A stretch of DNA of 64,000 nucleotides from an uncultured Acidobacteriota bacterium (GTDB lineage Bacteria; Acidobacteriota; Thermoanaerobaculia; UBA5066; DATFVB01), in assembly GCA_963714035.1 (NCBI GenBank), contig OY970224.1:1093240-1157239 (forward strand). Direction: 5' to 3'. Shown in pieces: positions 970 through 47,652 of the stretch; the first letter of the stretch is position 1, and each line of letters opens with the position of its first letter. The position numbers were made by a program, and so were the translations under genes. A model generated the notes under the pieces. The model was not told the origin of the DNA and did not search any database. It worked only from the letters and a program-made list of their open reading frames with translations.

Positions 970-3426
970 ATGAACGGATTCCTGACCGACCTTCGGCAGG
1001 CCGCGCGCGCGCTCGTCCGACGCCCCGGATTCACCGCCGCGGCGGTCGCCGCGCTCGCGATCGGGATCGGGGCGACGACGGCCATCTTCTCGGTGGTTTA
1101 CGGCGTTCTTCTCCGGCCTCTTCCCTACCCGGGAGAAGACCGGCTCATCGACGTCGCGGAAGTCAACGCGCGGGGGCGCGCGACACGCGTGTCCGACGCG
1201 AACTTTCTCGATTTCCGCGACCGCAACCGCACGCTCGACGGCCTCGCCGAATACTCGGACGTCTCCTCGACCGCGGTCGCCGTGGGCGCCCGTTCGAGCG
1301 GCGAGGCGCTTCGGACGCCGGTCGCGGTCGTGTCCGCCCGGTTCTTCGACGTCCTCGGCATCGCTCCGTCGCGCGGAAGAACCTTCGTTCCCGACGAGCT
1401 CGTTCCCGGAGGCCGGGCAGCCGCCCTCGTCAGCACGGACTTCTGGCGGACGCATCTGGCCGCCACGGCCGATCCCGCTTCGGCGGTCCTTCGAATCGAC
1501 GGCGCCTCCGTCGCGGTCGTGGGCGTCCTCCCGCCGGGATTCCACTTCCCCGACGGCGCCGAAGTCTGGATTCCGCGGGAGCGTGCGCCGTGGCTCCCCA
1601 GCCGGACGGCGCACAACAACCGGCTCGTCGGCCGGATGAAGGCGGGCGTTCCCGTCGCGGCGGCGCGCGCGGACCTTTCGTCGATCGCCCGCGCCCTCGC
1701 GGCGGAGCTCGGCAAGGACACCGACATGGCGGACGCGGGGGTCACGCCGCTGCGCGAAACGATCGTCGGACGGACGCGTCCCGCCCTCCTCCTCCTGCTC
1801 GCGGCGGCCGCGGCGCTCTTCCTCGTCGGATGCGTCGACGTCGTCGCGCTGCTTCTCGCCCGCGCGGCTTCGCGGCGGCGGGAGATCGCGATCCGCCGCG
1901 CGCTCGGCGCCGGGCGCGCCGACCTGATCCGCACGTTCCTCGCCGAAGCGCTCGCGGTCTCGGTGCCCGGCGGCCTCCTCGGGATCGGGATCGCGGCGGC
2001 TCTCGTCGGCGCCGTCGCCCGTCTCGCCCCGCCGGGGCTCCCCCGGGTCGCGGAGATCGCGGTCGATGCGCCGGCGCTCGCGGCCGGGCTCTTCCTCGCG
2101 CTCGCCGCCGCGGGAGCACTCGCGGTCGCGACCGCGTGGGGGGAGTACGGCAGCCGGCTGGCCGACGTCCTCCGCGGCCACCAGACGACGGCGAACGTGC
2201 GCACGCGCCGCGCGCAGCGCGTCCTCTCCGTCGGGCAGCTGGCGGTCACGGCGGCGCTGCTGGCGGGAGTCTCGCTTCTCGGCCGCAGCCTGACGAAGCT
2301 TCTCGACGTTCCCCTCGGATTCCAGCCGGCACGCGTGCTGACGATGGACCTCGATTTTCCGGATGCGGGATCCGACGCGGATCGCCGGAAGCGGAAGTCG
2401 GAGATCGCGGAAGTTCTCGACCGGGTCGGGAGGCTTCCCGGCGTCGAGAAGGCGGGAGCGACCGATGCGCTGCCGATCGGCAGCGATGCGCCGGACGGCA
2501 TTTTCCTCCTCATGAGCCCCGGACAGGCCCTTCCCGCTCCCGCGGATTTCGAACGACTCTTCAAGGACCCGGCGCGGACGGGTTCGGCCGATTACGCGCT
2601 CGCGACCGGCGGGTATTTTCCGTCGATGGGCATCCCGCTCTTGCGGGGGCGGCTCTTCGACGGCCGCGACGTCGCGGACGCGCCCCACGCGGCGGTCATC
2701 AGCGAGACGCTCGCGAAGACCCGCTTTGCGGAGCGCGATCCGATCGGACAGGTCGTCGAGTTCGGGAACATGGACGGCGACGTCCGCGTGATGACGATCG
2801 TCGGCGTCGTCGGAGACGTCCGGGAGAGCCGGATCGACGCCCCTCCGGAGTCGATCATCTACGGCGATCTCGCCCAGCGGCAGAAGGGGTCGACGGTCAC
2901 GGTGACGATGCGCGTCGCCGGCGATCCGCTGGCGATCGCCGAAAGCGCCCGGCGAGCGGCTCGCGAAGTCGATCCGCAGGTCCCCGCGACGATCCGGACG
3001 ATGGACGACGTCATCGCGGCAGCCGTCGCGCCGCGCCGTGTGGGGATCCTGCTGCTCTCCGTCTTCAGCATCGCCGCCCTGGCCCTCGCCTGCACGGGAC
3101 TCGCCGGGATCACGGCGTATTCGATCGCGCAGCGACAGCGGGAAATGGGCATTCGCGCGGCTCTCGGCGCCCGGCCGGCCGGGCTCCTCGCGCTGCTCCT
3201 GTCCGAGCAGTCCCGCCTCGTCGGCGCCGGTGTGGCGGCCGGCATGGCGATCGCGGTCTTCCTCGGCGCCCTCGCGCGCGCCCTGCTCTTCGGCGTCACC
3301 GCGGCCGATCCGCTCTCGCTCGCCTCCGCCGCCGCCGTTCTCGCCGCCGCCGCGACCGTCGCGGTCCTGATCCCCTCGCTCCGGCTGCTTCGGCTCCCCG
3401 CGGCGGAAGCCCTCCGGCAGGAATGA
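970..3426 (+). CDS. ADOP-family permease 1 (duplicated MacB-periplasmic-domain + FtsX modules)
   Basis: 818 aa. N-terminus is MNGFLTDLRQAARALVRRPGFTAAAVAALAIGIGATTAIFSVV. There are two FtsX-like blocks, each with an R-R-R-E-I-A/G-I-R-x-A-L-GA motif. The C-terminus ends ...AEALRQE. Confidence 0.9.
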   Translation: MNGFLTDLRQAARALVRRPGFTAAAVAALAIGIGATTAIFSVVYGVLLRPLPYPGEDRLIDVAEVNARGRATRVSDANFLDFRDRNRTLDGLAEYSDVSSTAVAVGARSSGEALRTPVAVVSARFFDVLGIAPSRGRTFVPDELVPGGRAAALVSTDFWRTHLAATADPASAVLRIDGASVAVVGVLPPGFHFPDGAEVWIPRERAPWLPSRTAHNNRLVGRMKAGVPVAAARADLSSIARALAAELGKDTDMADAGVTPLRETIVGRTRPALLLLLAAAAALFLVGCVDVVALLLARAASRRREIAIRRALGAGRADLIRTFLAEALAVSVPGGLLGIGIAAALVGAVARLAPPGLPRVAEIAVDAPALAAGLFLALAAAGALAVATAWGEYGSRLADVLRGHQTTANVRTRRAQRVLSVGQLAVTAALLAGVSLLGRSLTKLLDVPLGFQPARVLTMDLDFPDAGSDADRRKRKSEIAEVLDRVGRLPGVEKAGATDALPIGSDAPDGIFLLMSPGQALPAPADFERLFKDPARTGSADYALATGGYFPSMGIPLLRGRLFDGRDVADAPHAAVISETLAKTRFAERDPIGQVVEFGNMDGDVRVMTIVGVVGDVRESRIDAPPESIIYGDLAQRQKGSTVTVTMRVAGDPLAIAESARRAAREVDPQVPATIRTMDDVIAAAVAPRRVGILLLSVFSIAALALACTGLAGITAYSIAQRQREMGIRAALGARPAGLLALLLSEQSRLVGAGVAAGMAIAVFLGALARALLFGVTAADPLSLASAAAVLAAAATVAVLIPSLRLLRLPAAEALRQE

Positions 3427-5849
3427 TGCGAGGACTGCTCCACGATTTGCGGGACGGCCTTCGGGCGATGCGCCGCCTTCCGGGCGCGACGTCGGTGTCG
3501 ATCGCCATTCTCGGCCTCGCGATCGCCGCCAACGCCGTGATCCTGACGGTCGCGCAGACCGTGTTCTTTCGTCCGCTGCCCGTCCCGGCGGCGGATCGGC
3601 TCGCCCGCATCGTGCGATTCGAAGAAGGCCGCGAGAGCGGCGGCTTCTCCTACTCGGAGTACCGCGATGTCCGCGACCGCGCGACCGGATGGGAATCGAT
3701 CGCCGCGCATTACTCGTATGCTCCGCTCGTCGTGGCCACGCCGGGTGGAGCGCGGGAAACCCAGGGAGCGGTCGTCACCGCCAACTATTTCGCGATGCTC
3801 GGGGCCCGTCCGGCGCTCGGCCGCTTTTTCCGGGCGGATGAGGACGCCGTGCCCGGCCGCGACCCGGTCGCCATTCTCGGGGACGGCTTCTGGCGCACGC
3901 GATTCGGCGGCGACCCTTCGATCGTCGGCCGCACCGTGCGCATCAACGACGTTCCGTTCACCGTCGTGGGGATCGCACCCGCCGGGTTCGCCGGAGCGCA
4001 CCCCGAAACGCCCAACGACCTCTGGATACCGACGATGATGCTCCGTGTCGGATACCGCTGGGGCGATGCCCTTGCCGGAACGGCGAGGCCTCTCGAGATC
4101 CTCGGCCGAATCGCGCCCGGCGGCTCGCTCGAATCGGTACGGGCCGGCCTCGCCGCGCTCCCGCCGCCGGGCGGACGCCCGGGCGAACGCCTCTCGATCC
4201 TCGTCGCCGAGCGCGCCCGCGGCGTGGACCCGGCGGAGCGCCGGGCCCTTCTCCCTTCCGTCCGGCTCCTCGGGGCGATCGCCCTGCTCCTTCTGGCGGT
4301 TTCCTGCGCGAACGTCGCCGGGGTCCAGGGCGTCCGGGCCGCGGCCCGCCGGAAGGAGATCGCGATCCGCCGAAGCGTCGGCTGCACACCCGCGCGTCTC
4401 GTTCGCCTTCTCCTCATCGAGAGCCTGCTCACGGCGACGGCCGGGGGAACGCTCGGGGTCCTGCTCTCGGTGCCCGCGCGCGCGGCGATTCTCCCGTTCT
4501 ACACGGCCGATTCCGAAGGCTACGTTCGGACGTTTCCGGTCTCGCTCTCGCCGGCCGTGTGGATCGCCTCGCTCGCCCTCGCGCTCGTCGGCGGTCTGCT
4601 CTGCGGCGCGTTCCCGGCTTTCCAGGCCGCGCGCTCGAGCGTGCTCGACGCCCTGAAGGAGGCGCGCGGGGGCACCGGCCCGGGGGAAATCCGGCACCGG
4701 ACGATCCTGGTCGCGGCGCAGATCGCGCTTTCGTTCACGCTCGTCGCCGCCGCCGGCCTCCTGTCCCGCAGCGCGTCGAGCCTTCACTCCGACCGCTTCG
4801 ATCCGTCGCGCGTCGTCCTGATGCGCCTCCGCCCTCGCCTTGTCGAGGCTTCTCCAGAACGGGCCGAGCGGTACACGCGGGAGGTCCTCCGACGGCTGGA
4901 AGCCACGCCCGGAGTCGAGTCGGCCAGCCTCGTCCGCGGCTCCGGCCTCGCGTGGCGGGAGACGGGGGAAGCGACGATCGCGTCCCCCTCTTCGCCGGGC
5001 GCGCCTGCCCTCCAGGCCGGGTATCACGAGGTCGGGCCCCGGTTTCTGGCCGCCCTCGGGATTCCGCTCCTGCGGGGCCGCGAGTTCAATGCGGGCGATC
5101 GGCCCGGCTCCCCGCCGGTCGCTCTCGTCAGCGACTCCCTGGCGGCGGACATCGCGCCCGGCGGGGAGCCTCTCGGGCGCACGATCCTCGTCGACGGGCA
5201 TCCGTTCTCGGTCGTGGGAGTCTTCCGCGACGCCCAGCTCCGCCCCGCATCCCGTTCCTCCGCCCCCTTCGTCTATCTCGCCTACTGGCAGTTCCCGTTC
5301 GGACATCCCGTCGACTCGCGCCTCGTCGTCCGGACGGACGCCGATCCGAAGACGATGCTTGAGCGTCTGCGAAAGGAGGCGGTCGCCGTCGATCCCGGGA
5401 TTCCGGTGACCGAGCTGATGGCGATGTCGGATCAGGTTTCCTCCTCGCTCTCCGGGGTTTTTCTCGCGGCGCGCGTCGCCCGATGGGCCGGCGCCGTCGC
5501 CGTCCTGCTCGCGGGCCTCGGGGTCTACGGACTGTTCTCGTCCATGCTCCTCCGGCGCCGGCGGGAGTTCGCGGTGCGAATGGCCCTCGGCGCGGCAGGA
5601 TCGGACATTCGGGGGCTCGTCGCCCGCGACGCCTCGCGGCTCTTCGCCGCCGGATCGGCGGCGGGAGCCGCGGCGGCTTTCGCGGGGGCTCCGGCGATGG
5701 GCGCCTTCCTTTTCGCGACCGCCGGCCTCGACCTGCGCGCGGTCGCTTCGGCCGCGGGCATTCTCGGAGGCGCGACTTTCCTGGCGTGCTGGGCGCCCGC
5801 GCGGCGGGCGGCGCGCATCGATCCGGCCGCCGCCCTGCGGGCCGAATGA
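3423..5849 (+). CDS. ADOP-family permease 2
   Basis: The true start is taken as the ATGATG at 3423, which overlaps the upstream TGA (ATGA). N-terminus is MMRGLLHDLRDGLRAMRRLPGATSVSIAILGLAIAANAVILTV. C-terminus is ARRAARIDPAAALRAE. The 1590-3422 part of the track ORF is an out-of-frame overlap with permease 1. Confidence 0.88.
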   Translation: MMRGLLHDLRDGLRAMRRLPGATSVSIAILGLAIAANAVILTVAQTVFFRPLPVPAADRLARIVRFEEGRESGGFSYSEYRDVRDRATGWESIAAHYSYAPLVVATPGGARETQGAVVTANYFAMLGARPALGRFFRADEDAVPGRDPVAILGDGFWRTRFGGDPSIVGRTVRINDVPFTVVGIAPAGFAGAHPETPNDLWIPTMMLRVGYRWGDALAGTARPLEILGRIAPGGSLESVRAGLAALPPPGGRPGERLSILVAERARGVDPAERRALLPSVRLLGAIALLLLAVSCANVAGVQGVRAAARRKEIAIRRSVGCTPARLVRLLLIESLLTATAGGTLGVLLSVPARAAILPFYTADSEGYVRTFPVSLSPAVWIASLALALVGGLLCGAFPAFQAARSSVLDALKEARGGTGPGEIRHRTILVAAQIALSFTLVAAAGLLSRSASSLHSDRFDPSRVVLMRLRPRLVEASPERAERYTREVLRRLEATPGVESASLVRGSGLAWRETGEATIASPSSPGAPALQAGYHEVGPRFLAALGIPLLRGREFNAGDRPGSPPVALVSDSLAADIAPGGEPLGRTILVDGHPFSVVGVFRDAQLRPASRSSAPFVYLAYWQFPFGHPVDSRLVVRTDADPKTMLERLRKEAVAVDPGIPVTELMAMSDQVSSSLSGVFLAARVARWAGAVAVLLAGLGVYGLFSSMLLRRRREFAVRMALGAAGSDIRGLVARDASRLFAAGSAAGAAAAFAGAPAMGAFLFATAGLDLRAVASAAGILGGATFLACWAPARRAARIDPAAALRAE

Positions 5850-5859
5850 GAGGAGCACC

Positions 5860-8322
5860 ATGATCTCCGGCCTGCCGTCCGACATTCGCTACGCGTTCCG
5901 GTCCCTCCGCAAGTCTCCGGGATTCACGGCGGTCGCGATCGCGACTCTCGCCCTCGGGATCGGAGCGAACACGGCGATCTTCTCGGTCGTGCGCGGCGTG
6001 CTGCTGAAACCTTTGCCGTATCCGGACGCCGGTCGGATCGTCGCGCTGCGGACGGCGACCCGCCAGGGACGGCAGATGGGCGCCGCGAGCTTTCCCGACA
6101 TGACCGACTGGCGCTCGCGAAACACGGTCTTCGAAGAAGTCGGGGGCACCTACCCGATGGATCTCGCCGTGAGCGGCGGCACGCGTCCCGAACACGTCGA
6201 CGCCGCGGCCGTCACGGCCGGTCTCCTGCGCGTTCTCGGCGCGCGTCCCGCGGCCGGAAGGATCTTCGAGGAAGCCGACGACCGCGCCGGCGCGCGCGTC
6301 ATCGTCGCCAGCGACGGGTTCTGGAAAACGGTTCTCGGAGGGCGGCGCGACGCCGTCGGTTCGACCGTGAGGCTCAACGGGCGCGCCTTCACCGTGATCG
6401 GCGTCCTTCCGCCGGACTTCCGGATGCCGGTCGCGGGCTCCTCGGCGCAGATCTGGCTCTCCGCCGCGTTCGCCCACGAGTCGAACGACGGCTCCCCGGA
6501 GGCCGAACAGCGCGGCGCGCACTTCATCGACGTGTTCGCGAAACTCAAGCCCGGCGTCACCCTGGCAAGGGCCCAGGGCGAGATGATCGCGATCGGCGCC
6601 CGCCTGCAGAGGGAATACCCCGCCACGAACGCGAACATCGGCGTCCGCGTCGTGCCCGCGGCGGAGCCTCTCGTGAGCCGGGCGCGCCCCGCGCTGACGA
6701 TGCTCCTCGCGGCCGTCGGGCTCGTGCTGCTGATCGCCTGCGCGAACGCGGCGAACCTGGTCCTCGCCCGCGCCACCGCGCGCCGCGGCGAAATCACGAT
6801 CCGCGCCGCGATCGGCGCGAGCCGGGCCCGGATCGTCTCGCAGCTCCTCGCCGAGAGCACGATCCTCGCCGTCGCGGGAGGCGCGGCCGGAATCCTTCTC
6901 GCCGCGTGGGGAGTCCCCGCTCTCGTCGCCGCGTCCGCGGGACGCGTCCCCCGCTCCGCCGGGATCCGGATCGACGCCGGCGTCCTCCTCTTCACGCTCG
7001 CCGTCTCCGTCGCGACCGGGATCGTGTTCGGGCTCGCTCCGGCGCTCGCCTGCGCGCGGCCGAACCTTTCCGACGCGCTGCGGGAGCGCGGATCGGCGGC
7101 CGGCGGCGGCCGGCACCGCCTCCGGTCGGGGCTCGTCGTCGGTGAAGTCGCCGTGGCGTTCGTCCTCCTCGCGGGGGCGGGGCTCCTCCTCCGCAGCCTC
7201 GGACGCCTCGTCCATGCCGACCCCGGATTCGACTCGCGGCGCGTCTTCACGGCCCGTCTCGATCTTCCGGGACTCCGCTATCCCGATGCGGCGCGCGCCG
7301 CGGCGGCCTACGCCTCCGTCGTCGACGAGCTGGGACACGCTCCGGGAATCGTCTCGGCGGGCGCCCTGATGCCCCTCCCCCTCTCGGGATTCGAAGACAT
7401 GATCGGCTTCGCGCTCCCGGACGGGGGCGCGGCACTCCCCCCGCCGGACTCGGTGGGTCGGCCGTTTCCGTGGGAGTCCGCCTTCGCCGCCGCCGAGCCG
7501 GGATCGTTCCGGACGCTCGGCGTGCCGATCCGTTCCGGACGGGAGTTCCGGCGGAGCGACGACCTGCGCGCGGTCCCCGTCGCGATCGTGAACGAGACGC
7601 TCGCCCGGAAGTATTTCCCGGACGGCAAGGCCGTCGGCCGCCGGATCCAGCCGACGGTCTCCCCCGGCAGCGGCCCTCCTCCGATCCGCGAGATCGTCGG
7701 CGTCGCGGGAGACGTCAAGCTCGACGGACTCCGCGAGGAGGCCCGGCCGATGATCTACGTCCCGGAATCGCAGGTCGGCTTCAGCTCCATCTGGCTCGTG
7801 GTGAAGACGACGGGCAGCGACGCGACGGCGCTCGCGTCGATGCGGCGGCTCGTCGATCGGATCGATCCGGAGCTTCCCGTCTACGCGCCCCAGCCGCTCG
7901 CGCAGTACGTGAGCGGATCGTATTCGGCGGAGCGATTCACGTCTCTTCTCGTGACGATCTTCGCCGCCGTCGCGCTCGCGCTCACCGCGATCGGCCTCTT
8001 CGGCGTCGTGTCGTACACCGTCGCGCAGCGAACGCACGAAATCGGCGTGCGCGTGGCGATCGGCGCCCGGCCTGCCGAGGTCTTCCGGATGGTCGTCGGG
8101 TCCGGAATGCGTCTGGTCCTGGCCGGCGCGGCGGCGGGCCTGACCGGCGCGCTCCTCCTCGGCCGCGTCTTCGAAGGGTTCCTCTTCGGCGTCGGGCGTT
8201 CGGATCCGGCCACGCTCGCCTCGGTCGCCGCGCTCCTGGCCGCAATCGGTTTCCTGGCCTGCGCGCTCCCCGCCCGGCGCGCCGTCCGCGTGGATCCCGT
8301 GACGGCGCTGCGGGAGGAGTGA
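5860..8322 (+). CDS. ADOP-family permease 3
   Basis: 820 aa. N-terminus is MISGLPSDIRYAFRSLRKSPGFTAVAIATLALGIGANTAIFSVV. C-terminus is ARRAVRVDPVTALREE. A GAGAGGAG ribosome-binding site (RBS) lies upstream. Confidence 0.9.
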   Translation: MISGLPSDIRYAFRSLRKSPGFTAVAIATLALGIGANTAIFSVVRGVLLKPLPYPDAGRIVALRTATRQGRQMGAASFPDMTDWRSRNTVFEEVGGTYPMDLAVSGGTRPEHVDAAAVTAGLLRVLGARPAAGRIFEEADDRAGARVIVASDGFWKTVLGGRRDAVGSTVRLNGRAFTVIGVLPPDFRMPVAGSSAQIWLSAAFAHESNDGSPEAEQRGAHFIDVFAKLKPGVTLARAQGEMIAIGARLQREYPATNANIGVRVVPAAEPLVSRARPALTMLLAAVGLVLLIACANAANLVLARATARRGEITIRAAIGASRARIVSQLLAESTILAVAGGAAGILLAAWGVPALVAASAGRVPRSAGIRIDAGVLLFTLAVSVATGIVFGLAPALACARPNLSDALRERGSAAGGGRHRLRSGLVVGEVAVAFVLLAGAGLLLRSLGRLVHADPGFDSRRVFTARLDLPGLRYPDAARAAAAYASVVDELGHAPGIVSAGALMPLPLSGFEDMIGFALPDGGAALPPPDSVGRPFPWESAFAAAEPGSFRTLGVPIRSGREFRRSDDLRAVPVAIVNETLARKYFPDGKAVGRRIQPTVSPGSGPPPIREIVGVAGDVKLDGLREEARPMIYVPESQVGFSSIWLVVKTTGSDATALASMRRLVDRIDPELPVYAPQPLAQYVSGSYSAERFTSLLVTIFAAVALALTAIGLFGVVSYTVAQRTHEIGVRVAIGARPAEVFRMVVGSGMRLVLAGAAAGLTGALLLGRVFEGFLFGVGRSDPATLASVAALLAAIGFLACALPARRAVRVDPVTALREE

Positions 8323-28129: not shown

Positions 28130-28201
28130 CGGCGGACGGCGTGACGTTCCGGCGGGACCCGCGTATCCGGAATGGCCGGACTCGACGTCCGGTCCAGCAG
28201 G

Positions 28202-28463
28202 TTGCTGAAGAACCCCGCGGATCGCGCGCCAGTGGCTTGTGAACGAGATCAAGGCGCGAGGAGAGGACAGATGCCAGAGCGATCGGACTCGATGAGCAAC
28301 GCCGAGATCGTTCACCATGTACCGGCGCCCCAGCGGTTCGGGCGGCGCCGGGCCGTCTGCTTCGTTGCCGCTCCTCGACGATACTCCGGCATCGCCTGCG
28401 TCGCGGACGCCTTGCATCCGGCTCGGCGGCGCTCCGAACGCGACCCGTGCGGTTTTTCAGCAG
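28202..28463. repeat. Copy A of a two-copy structured element: conserved core closed by a 25-bp imperfect inverted repeat
   Basis: Left arm ttgctgaagaaccccgcggatcgcg (28202-28226) is complementary to right arm cgcgacccgtgcggtttttcagcag (28439-28463): 21 Watson-Crick pairs plus 1-2 wobbles, depending on strand, out of 25. The interior aligns to 47350-47563 at roughly three-quarters identity by eye, with at most a 1-nt length difference near the left end. Confidence 0.6.
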
Positions 28464-28479
28464 CCCGCCAGGAGGCCCG

Positions 28480-30921
28480 ATGAACGCCATTGCCCTCGAC
28501 GTCCGCTTCGCTCTCCGGCTCCTGCGCCGAAGCCCTGGCTTCGCGCTCGGCGTCGTTTCCGTTCTCGGTCTCGGAATCGCCGCCGCGACCGCGCTTTTCT
28601 CGATCGTCGATGCCGCGATCCTGCGGCCGCTCCCCTTTCCCGATCCCGGCCGCATCGTCGCCGTCGTCTCGGAAGATCGGGTCCACCATTCCCGCGCGGC
28701 CTCGTCGCCCCCCGATCTCGTCGATTTCCGGGCCTCCGTCCCGGCGCTTTCCGAAGTCGCGGCGACGACGCCCTGGAGCCCCGCCGCAACCGGTGCGGGA
28801 GAGCCGGAGCGTCTGCGGGGTCTCCTGGTCTCGGCGAACTTCTTCTCGCTGCTCGGCGTCCGCATGGCGCGCGGACGCGCGTTCGATCCCGCCGAGGAGA
28901 CGCCGGGGCGCGACCGCGTCGTCGTGATCGGCGACGCGCTCTGGCGCCGGAGGTTTGGCGCCGATCCCCGTCTCGTCGGCCGCGCGATCCTCTTGAACGG
29001 CGACCCCTACACCGTCGTCGGAATCGCTCCCGCCCGGTTCCGATGGGGACGGGCGTACGGCCGCAACGGCGTCTCCGACCTCTGGGCCCCTTTCGCCCTC
29101 ACGCCGGAGCGCGTCGCCGCGGGCGAGCGCGGAGACGAGTATCTCGACCTGATCGGCAGGCTCCGCCCCGGCGTCTCCTTCGCCGAAGCCCAGGGGCAGG
29201 TGGACGCCCTCGTTCGCCGGTTCCAGCGCGACTACCCCGCCCAGTTTCCTCCGGGAAGCCCGATCCGCACGGCGATCGTCCCCCTGCAGGGCGACCTCGT
29301 CGGCGACACGCGGACGCCTCTCTGGATCCTGTTCGGGGCGGTCGGGTTCCTTCTCCTGATCGCCTGCACGAATGTCGCGGGCCTGCTCCTCGCGCGAGCC
29401 GCGAAGCGGCGGGCCGAGATGGCGATTCGAGTCTCGCTCGGCGCCTCGAGGAGCCGGCTCTTCTCCCAGCTCCTCGCCGAGAGCGCCGTCGTCACGTTCC
29501 TGTCCGCCGCCGTGGGGGCCGTCGGCGGATGGGCCCTCCTCCGGCTCGCGGGAAGCCGCCTCCCGGCGGATTTTCCGGGCGTGTCGGCGCTCGCCGTCGA
29601 CCTTCGGGTCCTGGCGTTCGTCCTCGCGCTGGGCGCCGTGACGGCGATCGCGTTCGGCCTCGTGCCGCTCGTCGGCTCGTCCGTGTTCGACGTCCGCCGG
29701 CGCATCGACGAGGGTCGAACCGCCGGCGGGCGCGGGGAAGGACGGCTGCGCCGCGTTCTCGTCGCCGGCCAGCTCGGCCTCGCGGCGCTGCTCCTCGTCG
29801 GCGCCGCCCTTCTCGCGCTGAGCCTCGTCCGGATCCTGCGCGTCGATCCGGGATTCGACGCGCAGAACGTGATCACCGGCGAGCTGTCGCTTCCCCGGAG
29901 CCGCTATTCCGACCCCTTGCGGCGCGAAGCCTTCCGAAGAGCCGTGCTCGATCGTCTCGAGGCGGCGCCGGGCGTGATCGGGGCCGCCGCCGTCTCGGTC
30001 CTTCCCATGAGCGGCAACGCCAACAGCAGCTCCTTCGACGTCGAAGGGAGACCGGACCTCTCCGGGAACCGGGCGGCCCACGGGGAGAGCTGGGCGGCCA
30101 CGCCCGGATATTTCCCGACGATGCGGATCCCGCTCCGGCGCGGCCGTTTGTTCGCCGATTCCGACGGCCCGTCTTCGCTTCCGGTCGCGATCGTCGACGA
30201 GTCGCTGGCTCGCGCGTATTTCGGCGAGGCGGATCCGATCGGCCGCCGGATCGACTTCGAGGGGGACGCCAACGGCCGGAAGTGGCGGGTCGTCGTCGGC
30301 GTCGTCCGGACCGTCCGGGCGCGTTCGCTCGGCGACGCGCCGCGCCCGTCGTTCTACGTCCCTTTCTCGCAGTCCCACGAACGGGTGATGACGTTCGTCG
30401 CGCGGGTCCGGGGCAACGCCGCCGCGACCGCGTCGGCCCTTCGCGCCGCGGTCGCCGCCGCCGATCCCGACCAGCCCCTCGGCACGGTCGCTCCGCTCGA
30501 GGATCTCGCCTCGGAGTCCGTCTCCCAGCGACGCGTCGCGGCGGCGGCGATCGCCGCCTTCGCGGCCGCCGCGCTTCTCCTCGCGGTCGTCGGACTGTAC
30601 GGGGTCCTCGCGTACTCGGTGGCTCGCCGCAAACGGGAGATCGGGATCCGCATGGCGCTCGGCGCCGTTCCCTCCGCGATCGCCGCTCTCGTTCTGCGGG
30701 AGAGCGGCCGGGTGATCTCGGCCGGTCTCGCGGGCGGGCTGGCCGCCGCGTTTCTCGCGACGCGATTCCTGACGAGCCTCCTCTTCGGCGTGACGCCGCT
30801 CGATCCGCTCGCGTTCGGCGCCGTGGCGGCGATCCTCGCGGGGGCCGGCCTTCTCGCGAGCTTCCTGCCGGCCCGTCGGGCGGCCCGCATCGCTCCGATG
30901 GAGGCGCTGCGCGCGGAATAG
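28480..30921 (+). CDS. ADOP-family permease 12
   Basis: ATG at 28480 lies 5 nt after AGGAGG. N-terminus is MNAIALDVRFALRLLRRSPGFALGVVSVLGLGIAAATALFSIV. C-terminus is ARRAARIAPMEALRAE. The track start at 28447 lies inside the repeat arm. Confidence 0.88.
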   Translation: MNAIALDVRFALRLLRRSPGFALGVVSVLGLGIAAATALFSIVDAAILRPLPFPDPGRIVAVVSEDRVHHSRAASSPPDLVDFRASVPALSEVAATTPWSPAATGAGEPERLRGLLVSANFFSLLGVRMARGRAFDPAEETPGRDRVVVIGDALWRRRFGADPRLVGRAILLNGDPYTVVGIAPARFRWGRAYGRNGVSDLWAPFALTPERVAAGERGDEYLDLIGRLRPGVSFAEAQGQVDALVRRFQRDYPAQFPPGSPIRTAIVPLQGDLVGDTRTPLWILFGAVGFLLLIACTNVAGLLLARAAKRRAEMAIRVSLGASRSRLFSQLLAESAVVTFLSAAVGAVGGWALLRLAGSRLPADFPGVSALAVDLRVLAFVLALGAVTAIAFGLVPLVGSSVFDVRRRIDEGRTAGGRGEGRLRRVLVAGQLGLAALLLVGAALLALSLVRILRVDPGFDAQNVITGELSLPRSRYSDPLRREAFRRAVLDRLEAAPGVIGAAAVSVLPMSGNANSSSFDVEGRPDLSGNRAAHGESWAATPGYFPTMRIPLRRGRLFADSDGPSSLPVAIVDESLARAYFGEADPIGRRIDFEGDANGRKWRVVVGVVRTVRARSLGDAPRPSFYVPFSQSHERVMTFVARVRGNAAATASALRAAVAAADPDQPLGTVAPLEDLASESVSQRRVAAAAIAAFAAAALLLAVVGLYGVLAYSVARRKREIGIRMALGAVPSAIAALVLRESGRVISAGLAGGLAAAFLATRFLTSLLFGVTPLDPLAFGAVAAILAGAGLLASFLPARRAARIAPMEALRAE

Positions 30922-30953: not shown

Positions 30954-31616
<663 letters not shown>

Positions 31617-47108: not shown

Positions 47109-47320
47109 TCTGACGCATCCTGGGAGCCTTCGGGGAAACGCGAACAGCGCGAGCCCCCTGCGGAAATCGAGAGCCGCTGACACGGCGGGTTCCCAGCGCC
47201 GTGACGTGACTCTGAGGCCCACTCCCCGCGGCGCTAACGACACCGCGCGTCAGGCGCGAGCGAGAGACGGGATGCGGGCCTGCCCGCCGTGTCCCGAGGC
47301 GTACCGGGGCGTACGTGAGT

Positions 47321-47592
47321 GCCCCGGAACGGGAATAACGGCAGCGGCGCGCCGGCGGCTTGCGGAGGAGCTCAATGTCGCGCGCCGGGAGCAGATGCCG
47401 TTGTGCATCGGGCCCGGGACGCGACGCCGAGATCGTTCGCAATGCGCCAGCGCCCTTCGGGTTCGGGCGGCGCAGGGCCATCGGCGGCGTTGCCGCGGCT
47501 AGACGATCGCAACCGCATCGCCTTCGCCGCGTCGCCTTGCCGCTGACCCTGCGGCGCTCCGAACGCCGCTGTCGCTATTCCCGTTCCGGGGC
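47321..47592. repeat. Copy B of the two-copy structured element: conserved core closed by a 29-bp near-perfect inverted repeat
   Basis: Left arm gccccggaacgggaataacggcagcggcg (47321-47349) pairs with right arm cgccgctgtcgctattcccgttccggggc (47564-47592) at 27 of 29 Watson-Crick positions. A second 16-bp perfect inverted pair, gcgggcctgcccgccg (47274-47289) with cggcgggcaggcccgc (47601-47616), lies outside it. The core aligns to 28227-28438. Confidence 0.6.
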
Positions 47593-47652
47593 ACCGGGCG
47601 CGGCGGGCAGGCCCGCGCCCGTATTCGCTCGATGCATCACGCGCGGTCGGTC

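Follow-up and report, generated by a model that had tools for sequence, protein, structure and literature searches.

Two look-alike segments of an Acidobacteriota genome as very probable copies of a MITE family with IS5-type ends and a conserved Y-shaped fold

Two look-alike segments in the stretch of Acidobacteriota DNA analysed here (64 kb in full length, 69.6% G+C, hereafter the window) are very probably copies of a non-autonomous DNA transposon of about 270 bp, a MITE, that has no transposase of its own and is mobilised by a transposase of the IS5 type. It is the combination of multiple and dispersed copies, terminal inverted repeats, a CTAG-like duplication and IS5-type ends which leads us to regard the element as a MITE. 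In line with this, it is small, encodes no transposase and carries terminal inverted repeats of about 16 nt that extend into a stem of about 30 bp, while a target duplication is seen throughout the family and at the first window copy (copy A, CCAG/CCAG) but not at the second (copy B), and repeats shared with an autonomous insertion sequence (IS) are found for the class to which copy A belongs. The family, which is undescribed but abundant in Acidobacteriota and, more specifically, in soil and peat Acidobacteriota metagenomes, represents a MITE whose interior is more constrained than its terminal repeats and whose hairpin is shuffled among repeat classes. Literature searches by topic and by sequence found no description of it and no paper containing its diagnostic sequences.

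A previous sequence-only reading of this DNA had picked out two look-alike segments with borders nearly those given in Table 1, and had seen a common core enclosed in both by a long inverted repeat at matching positions. We can confirm this. With boundaries of copy A placed from its terminal repeats and flanks, the inverted repeats pair 28197-28226 with 28439-28468 in copy A (30 nt, 80% complementary) and 47319-47349 with 47564-47594 in copy B (31 nt, 94% complementary). Between them lies a core of about 218 nt, common to both copies and 72-74% identical: aligning the window with itself pairs 28224-28441 with 47347-47566 (221 columns, 73.8% identity, E = 6e-36). This alignment contains several 1-nt indels and so departs from the earlier view that the cores differ in length by 1 nt at most. 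While the cores of A and B are 72% identical, their arms share 31%. The arms had hence been called copy-specific, which is right for A against B but has to be recast as class-specific, since the arm sequence of copy B (TGCCCCGGAACGGGAATAACGG...) recurs in loci L007, L011 and L016 and that of copy A in L103, the closest relative of copy A among the matches listed (arms 89%, core 86% identical). Similarly, the label of a two-copy element holds within the 64-kb window, where neither sensitive blastn nor an nhmmer family profile found a third copy, but not for the family, which has at least 19 copies in one genome (CAWCDE01) and at least 120 metagenome loci. As for a coding role, there is no conserved reading frame: indels between A and B break the frame, substitutions follow no periodic pattern and six-frame translations of the two copies are only patchily similar and interrupted by frame shifts, on which grounds we rejected a protein-coding reading.

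Table 1. Coordinates of both MITE copies and of associated features in the window
Feature	Position	Strand	Basis
Copy A, complete 270-nt MITE, type I core, 'CAGGYTGCTGAA' repeat class	28198..28467	+	nhmmer E = 2.5e-56 vs family profile
Left copy of 4-bp target-site duplication CCAG (variant of the family's CTAG), copy A	28194..28197	.	read from sequence
Left terminal inverted repeat CAGGTTGCTGAAGAA, copy A	28198..28212	+	2 mismatches to IS5-family IS repeat CAGGCTGCTGAAAAA
P1 5' strand, copy A, pairs with 28440-28467	28198..28225	+	inverted repeat, predicted fold, covariation
Left hairpin P2, copy A, GA-rich internal section GCGAGGAG.../...GATGAGCAAC	28226..28328	+	predicted fold, covariation
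Right hairpin P3 (GGTTCGGGCGGCGC ... GCGGCGCTCCGAAC), copy A, module of whole superfamily	28336..28439	+	predicted fold, covariation
P1 3' strand, copy A	28440..28467	+	inverted repeat
Right terminal inverted repeat, copy A (reverse complement CGGGCTGCTGAAAAA)	28453..28467	-	1 mismatch to IS repeat
Right copy of duplication CCAG, copy A; overlaps AGGAGG RBS 28470-28475	28468..28471	.	sequence and flank tabulation
Left half of outer palindromic repeat X, host of nested copy B	47242..47319	.	outer inverted repeats
Copy B, complete 274-nt MITE, type I core, 'TGCCCCGGAACGGGAA' repeat class	47320..47593	+	nhmmer E = 5.3e-73
Left terminal repeat and P1 5' strand, copy B, pairs with 47565-47593	47320..47348	+	inverted repeat, predicted fold
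Left hairpin P2, copy B	47349..47453	+	predicted fold, covariation
Right hairpin P3, copy B	47461..47564	+	predicted fold, covariation
Right terminal repeat and P1 3' strand, copy B	47565..47593	+	inverted repeat
Right half of outer repeat X	47594..47647	.	outer inverted repeats

How large the family is became apparent from a scan of one genome per species with the pattern GAGATCGTTC-N(18-24)-GGTTCGGGCGG, which returned 23 loci, about 17 of them from a single Acidobacteriota MAG, CAWCDE01; pattern matches in other phyla showed no homology outside the pattern. A profile search of the 23 loci gave 19 full-length copies plus 2 partial ones, and CAWCDE01 harbours at least 19 full copies on 5 contigs. 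Members of the M class are near-identical, have unrelated flanks and are all bounded as CTAG-TGTCCCGTCCCGGAAATAAC...GTTATTTCCGGGACGGGACA-CTAG; near-identical copies at unrelated sites imply recent movement. A fourth repeat class (TGCCCTGTAACGGGG) was found in L020. A scan of metagenome contigs with the right-hairpin base (GGTTSSGGCGGCGC-N(72-102)-GCGCTCSSAAC) yielded at least 120 loci or contigs and, among the matches listed, nearly all have the hairpin, then the element end about 30 nt on and then CTAG. Among these listed matches, 84 complete elements could be delimited through the reverse complement of the right-end 16-mer upstream (up to 4 mismatches); they measure 173-332 nt with lengths mostly clustered at 257-290 nt, and are flanked by CTAG on both sides in 42 cases, the others having mostly one-base variants, with G adjoining the element on the left in 81/84 and C on the right in 84/84. 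The outer 15 nt of copy A recur in many elements. There are at least 8 terminal-repeat classes (including CAGGCTGCTGAAAAA, TGTCCCGTCCCGGAAA, TGCCCCGGAACGGGAA, GAGCCYGTCCGAGAAT, CAGCCCGTGGTGGAAG, TGCACCAAGTCTGAGG and CAGCCCGTTGAGAAAC) that, judged from their sequences, look like diverged versions of one theme, and two left halves, type I in both window copies and type II in most CAGGCTGCTG elements. The right hairpin P3 is present in all elements recovered by a scan that itself selected for the P3 stem base. Viral contigs gave 0 matches to the family and a plasmid collection no DNA match.

These data bear on the origin of the arms. If the core had been inserted into the loops of pre-existing palindromes such as terminators or REP-like hairpins, the arms would be target DNA, as one might suspect from arms that differ between the window copies, a right arm of copy A that ends in a T run and a copy B that sits inside a larger palindrome. 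However, the same arms go with the core at numerous sites of unrelated sequence (in 13 copies of the M class, 4 of the B class and more than 20 of the CAGGCTGCTG class), and copies cease to be similar precisely where the arms end and CTAG begins. Since the arms thus travel with the core, we consider target palindromes refuted and give them virtually no chance.

In support of a MITE moved in trans, the outermost 15 nt on each side of copy A match the repeat of an IS found in L022 and L017 with the 2 (left) and 1 (right) mismatches listed in Table 1, against a chance expectation of 0.25 for such repeat matches in the window. The L022 copy is intact (2379-3669, 1.29 kb), has the repeats CAGG[T/C]TGCTGAAAAA with CTAG on both sides and encodes a 366-aa protein with DUF772 and DDE_Tnp_1 (Pfam). 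With 241.7 bits, this protein lies above the cut-off of 140 set for NCBIfam NF033581, 'IS5 family transposase'; it is this transposase score together with the short repeats and CTAG at both ends that assigns the IS to the IS5 family. A second copy of the IS starts at L017 6833, and several copies of the M class have CAGGCTGCTGAAAAA next to them, with one CTAG serving both. MITE and IS have no more than their terminal 15-21 nt or so in common, the MITE interior being unrelated to the IS ends. An IS5-family IS from a Microvirga plasmid, 54% identical, has repeats CAGGCYGTTGAAAAAGT and a TTAG/TTAG direct repeat, which lends support to this group of ISs duplicating 4 bp at targets of YTAR type. 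Among all loci analysed, no intact IS was found with repeats of the classes of copy B, M, GAGCC, CAGCCCGTGG or TGCACC. IS5-family ISs ending in TGTCCCGTCCCGG, TGCCCCGGAACGG, GAGCCYGTCCGAG, CAGCCCGTGGTG or TGCACCAAGTC would, if found, complete the partner assignment for copy B; were complete Acidobacteriota genomes to hold no such partner, this would be a real anomaly.

The sequence-only reading had come to a different view on this point. It saw no transposon link, took conserved pairing as something that sets the element apart from a simple sequence remnant and named a match to an IS end as a finding that would tell against it. Such a match is what the outer arms of copy A provide, as they correspond to the ends of an intact, CTAG-flanked IS5-family IS, and the pairing arms are the terminal inverted repeats of a transposon. 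Nor does the lack of a nearby transposase, which it had noted, inform on an element that is mobilised in trans. In the mechanism we envisage, an IS5-family DDE transposase supplied in trans would bind both terminal repeats and would cut and paste the element into YTAR/CTAG targets, and the arms may covary between classes at least partly since one and the same transposase has to fit either end.

Copy A occupies a spacer of 350 nt that separates two plus-strand genes for permeases of about 810 aa (MacB_PCD+FtsX), with its right end 12 nt from the ATG (28480) of the downstream gene. Here (28468-28482) the right-flank CCAG runs directly into AGGAGG, followed by the permease ATG, and this contiguity places the insertion immediately upstream of the permease translation start signals. 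The surrounding region (970-30921, plus strand) is a tandem array of about ten ORFs of some 800-820 aa with very short spacers, two of which were tested and represent MacB_PCD+FtsX duplicated permeases; the only long spacer is the site of copy A, and an ABC ATPase gene (30954-31616) comes after the array. Copy B is bordered by the nuoN (Proton_antipo_M) stop on one side and by the leading gene of an atp operon (ATPase_gene1) on the other, both genes being on the minus strand, so that copies A and B are oppositely oriented relative to their neighbours. Insertion into operon spacers, by a permease RBS for copy A and between the nuo and atp operons for copy B, suggests that the element may affect expression and marks recent genome rearrangement.

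In contrast to copy A, copy B has lost an intact duplication (flanks TGAG / CCGG) and is nested in a second repeat family, X, an imperfect palindrome of about 130 nt with GGGATGCGGGC... and GCGCCCGTAKTCGCTCGATGCATC, whose outer inverted repeats surround the copy (47274-47294/47596-47616 and 47242-47255/47634-47647). X flanks are also seen around the B-class copies L007 5190-5484 and L011 3589-3883, while X is uninterrupted in L019 (about 7560-7680). The left TGAG is common to all three, and these X::B copies probably go back to a single old insertion that was duplicated later together with X. Without a recognisable duplication and with flanks that it shares with two other copies, copy B may thus be passively copied inside a larger repeat. 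The sole empty-site comparison is with the paralogous X in L019, and its junction is not clean.

Both window copies adopt one predicted shape, a Y in which the closing stem P1 (about 30 bp) bears two hairpins of about 105 nt each, P2 and P3. On the plus strand, the fold is more stable than that of dinucleotide shuffles (z = -4.3 for A and -10.2 for B, with 0/200 shuffles as stable), and the minus strand folds equally well in both copies. For an alignment (A3) of 29 diverse type I elements, RNAalifold predicts 91 pairs, and compensatory double changes occur in 68 of these. Observed pairing amounts to 95.3% of cells, compared to 75.2% in column shuffles (0/500 as high) and 33-43% when partners are slid by 1-3 columns; the covariation score is 0.518, as opposed to 0.149 (column shuffles) and about 0.07 (slid partners). 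Pairing is therefore kept while sequence changes, just as the sequence-only reading had proposed, and compensatory substitutions preserve the Y shape in no fewer than 8 terminal-repeat classes. The internal pairing gttcgg/ccgaac, which that reading had named for a covariation test, does covary: the motif is the base of the right hairpin, with CG/GC swaps in 12 of the 29 sequences. By stem, covarying pairs number 28/28 in P1, 16/22 in P2 and 8/18 at the P3 base plus most of the apical pairs. Covariation in P1 alone could reflect a need for two matching transposase sites. P2 and P3, which are not transposase sites, covary too, and no transposase requirement explains this interior pairing.

In most classes, the middle of P2 is a section of GGA/GAC repeats in which G-C pairs can alternate with tandem G·A pairs; a Watson-Crick helix takes its place in classes M, B and D. 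In L114 (A3 columns 63-72 and 102-114), the GA-rich P2 strands are swapped as a unit (GACGACGA 5' and GAGGAGGAG 3'), the reverse of the strand order in all other members of the class; such an exchange is what a conserved non-canonical helix would allow. CGAGGAG and CUCCUCG motifs are complementary in most classes. A pseudoknot between the P2 loop and the P3 tip built from them was discarded when inspection of the alignment showed the M, B, L075 and L114 variants to be out of register. The junction loop varies (UUC, AAA, UCC, GGA, UUU and others) and tip loops differ in sequence and length; UUCG/GNRA tetraloops, present at only some tips, are in this light a weak signature of RNA and were set aside as such.

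Might the fold be a mutational by-product? Template-switch mutagenesis at quasi-palindromes is an established mechanism in bacteria, and if hairpins in single-stranded DNA were mended by template switching or mismatch repair, with one arm copied to the other, both strands would be expected to fold equally well, as they do. The same holds for wobble pairs, among which the excess of G-U over A-C is only twofold, a mild bias toward the plus strand (94 vs 47 overall), and for orientation, which is not biased. What such correction pushes toward, however, is a perfect palindrome, whereas internal loops, bulges and the GA-rich section (GGA/GAC) persist here across classes. Moreover, L114 swaps both GA-rich strands as a unit, one strand of a stem can hold invariant blocks while its partner strand changes, and the core is more constrained than the arms, so we judge quasi-palindrome correction to be an unlikely source of the fold.

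Another explanation is that of a free-standing gene family for a structured non-coding RNA, in which a discrete plus-strand transcript of about 270 nt would be closed by the arms as helix P1 and the transposon traits would be incidental. Very strong covariation that includes internal helices no transposase needs, a core better conserved than the arms and some plus-strand tips of GNRA or UUCG type would all suit it, and so would fixed wobbles that favour G-U on the plus strand, above all in P2 (28 vs 6; overall, eleven sites have at least 3 G-U and three sites at least 3 A-C). Against this, the outer arms are ends of an IS5-family IS with the same CTAG flanks, near-identical copies have unrelated flanks, insertions abut or nest at shared CTAG sites and the tip loops vary in sequence and length. 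Orientation is neutral as well: relative to neighbour genes (a crude GC3-based ORF call), we counted 14 same-sense and 12 antisense elements in co-directional gene pairs next to 15 in convergent and 9 in divergent ones, and by this crude caller there is no preference. Neither promoter-like nor terminator-like consensus sequences were seen in or beside either window copy, and the window has no tRNA or tmRNA. That the earlier reading could not match the element to any RNA family known to it agrees with Rfam, which gave 0 matches for the whole window at gathering thresholds and, at E <= 10, nothing relevant for either locus (best malK-III, 25.3 bits vs a threshold of 50). Altogether, we hold a free-standing RNA gene family to be very unlikely, while a MITE that also yields a functional RNA is possible.

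Returning to the MITE moved in trans, its simple form leaves the fold unexplained, because a core conserved better than the terminal repeats (for L037 vs L111, 90% in the core and 60% in the arms) runs contrary to the expectation for a MITE that is simply a deletion derivative. We weakly favour that the fold is selected in a single-stranded form, be it as a transcript or as single-stranded DNA when the element is replicated or transposed. Such selection probably helps the element to propagate or to be tolerated, rather than each copy serving its neighbour genes. A step further would be that the Y-shaped core, and P3 in particular, is a functional single-stranded module, either RNA or folded DNA for IS5 transposition or a host sRNA family spread by the MITE. 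This would explain why the core is conserved better than the transposase-binding ends, and P3 is indeed found together with two kinds of left half and with at least 8 classes of terminal repeats; still, we rate it as rather unlikely. A function in IS5 transposition would, if true, be needed in cis or be regulatory. The family thus lends itself to the question of what selects for structure within selfish DNA, with RNA, single-stranded DNA and mutational correction as candidates. With its excellent covariation it is also prone to be flagged as a 'novel structured RNA' in annotation unless it is known as a transposon.

According to Delihas (2011, PMC3184786), bacterial MITEs combine terminal inverted repeats with flanking direct repeats, lack a transposase and fold stably. 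Like MITEs derived from or mobilised by IS5 elements, the family here is small, lacks a transposase, is dispersed over many intergenic sites, is predicted to fold stably, shares the repeats of the copy A class with an intact IS5-family IS and makes a 4-bp duplication of YTAR/CTAG type. Unlike the usual IS5 MITEs, it joins one core (or P3) to at least 8 repeat classes, with the core conserved better than the repeats. By analogy, the closest counterpart in architecture and evolutionary behaviour is bcr1 of the Bacillus cereus group, a MITE-like repeat with short direct repeats and a 'cruciform-like' fold with two independent stem-loops (PMC3184786) that is transcribed and whose fold is maintained by compensatory base-pair changes (Delihas 2011, PMC3184786). 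Here, too, a closing stem carries two stem-loops, with 68/91 pairs covarying, and we take this as likeness in shape and function, not as homology: bcr1 is about 155 bp with 5-bp direct repeats and comes from Firmicutes, whereas our family is about 270 bp with a 4-bp duplication of CTAG type and comes from Acidobacteriota. Correia/NEMIS (Neisseria) and ERIC/IRU (enterobacteria) resemble it as intergenic MITE-type elements with terminal inverted repeats and a TA-containing target that form long hairpins when transcribed. They are, however, single hairpins of 100-160 bp with documented RNase III processing, IHF sites or promoters (general knowledge and PMC3184786), as opposed to a three-way junction with two arms of about 105 nt. 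The T- or Y-shaped hairpins of parvoviruses (AAV inverted terminal repeat) have the same topology and can form in single-stranded DNA. This is an analogy of shape only, as our family has no Rep/HUH gene, no matches among viral contigs, twice the size, transposon ends and a target duplication. Two further candidates were dismissed: retron msr/msd, given neighbours (MacB_PCD/FtsX permeases, nuoN and an atp gene) that include no reverse transcriptase and multi-copy transposon ends that speak against it, and IS200/IS605 PATE or omega-RNA ends, given true terminal inverted repeats, a 4-bp duplication and a DDE transposase of the IS5 family as the only one linked.

Modules of the family are mosaic, as seen from a CCCCGCGAAAGCGGGG stem that the P3 tip may or may not carry and that is found in the M as well as the B class. 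This 15-nt stem-loop (GGTCCCCGCGAAAGCGGGG, GAAA loop; A3 columns ~195-210) is present in L007, L011, L002-L004 and others and absent from L001, L014, L020 and the window copies, a patchy distribution within M and B classes that points to recombination between classes or to recurrent gain and loss. Solo M-like ends without the usual core were seen at L004 6317-6350 and, just downstream of MITE ends, in L039 and L053 (CTAGTGTCCCGTCACCGAAATGAC; TGTCCTGTCCCAGAAATAGC), the one in L039 being followed by a different short repeat that contains GTCATCCCGAGGAGCGCCGCGACGAGGGATC; no transposase was found beside any of the three. In L010 (1296-1866), L020 (5646-6201) and L022 (2375-3963), elements belonging to distinct classes, as well as the full IS, stand back to back with a single CTAG between them, which suggests repeated insertion at a CTAG made or kept at the end of an existing element. 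In L136 (32-1857), a pair of long-range repeats was considered as an autonomous IS and rejected, as it is a CAGGGTGCTGAAAAA-class MITE whose right arm is split by an insertion of about 1.55 kb. The latter encodes a 375-aa IS110-family transposase (DEDD_Tnp_IS110 + Transposase_20), so that an element of IS110 type has targeted the closing stem of the MITE.
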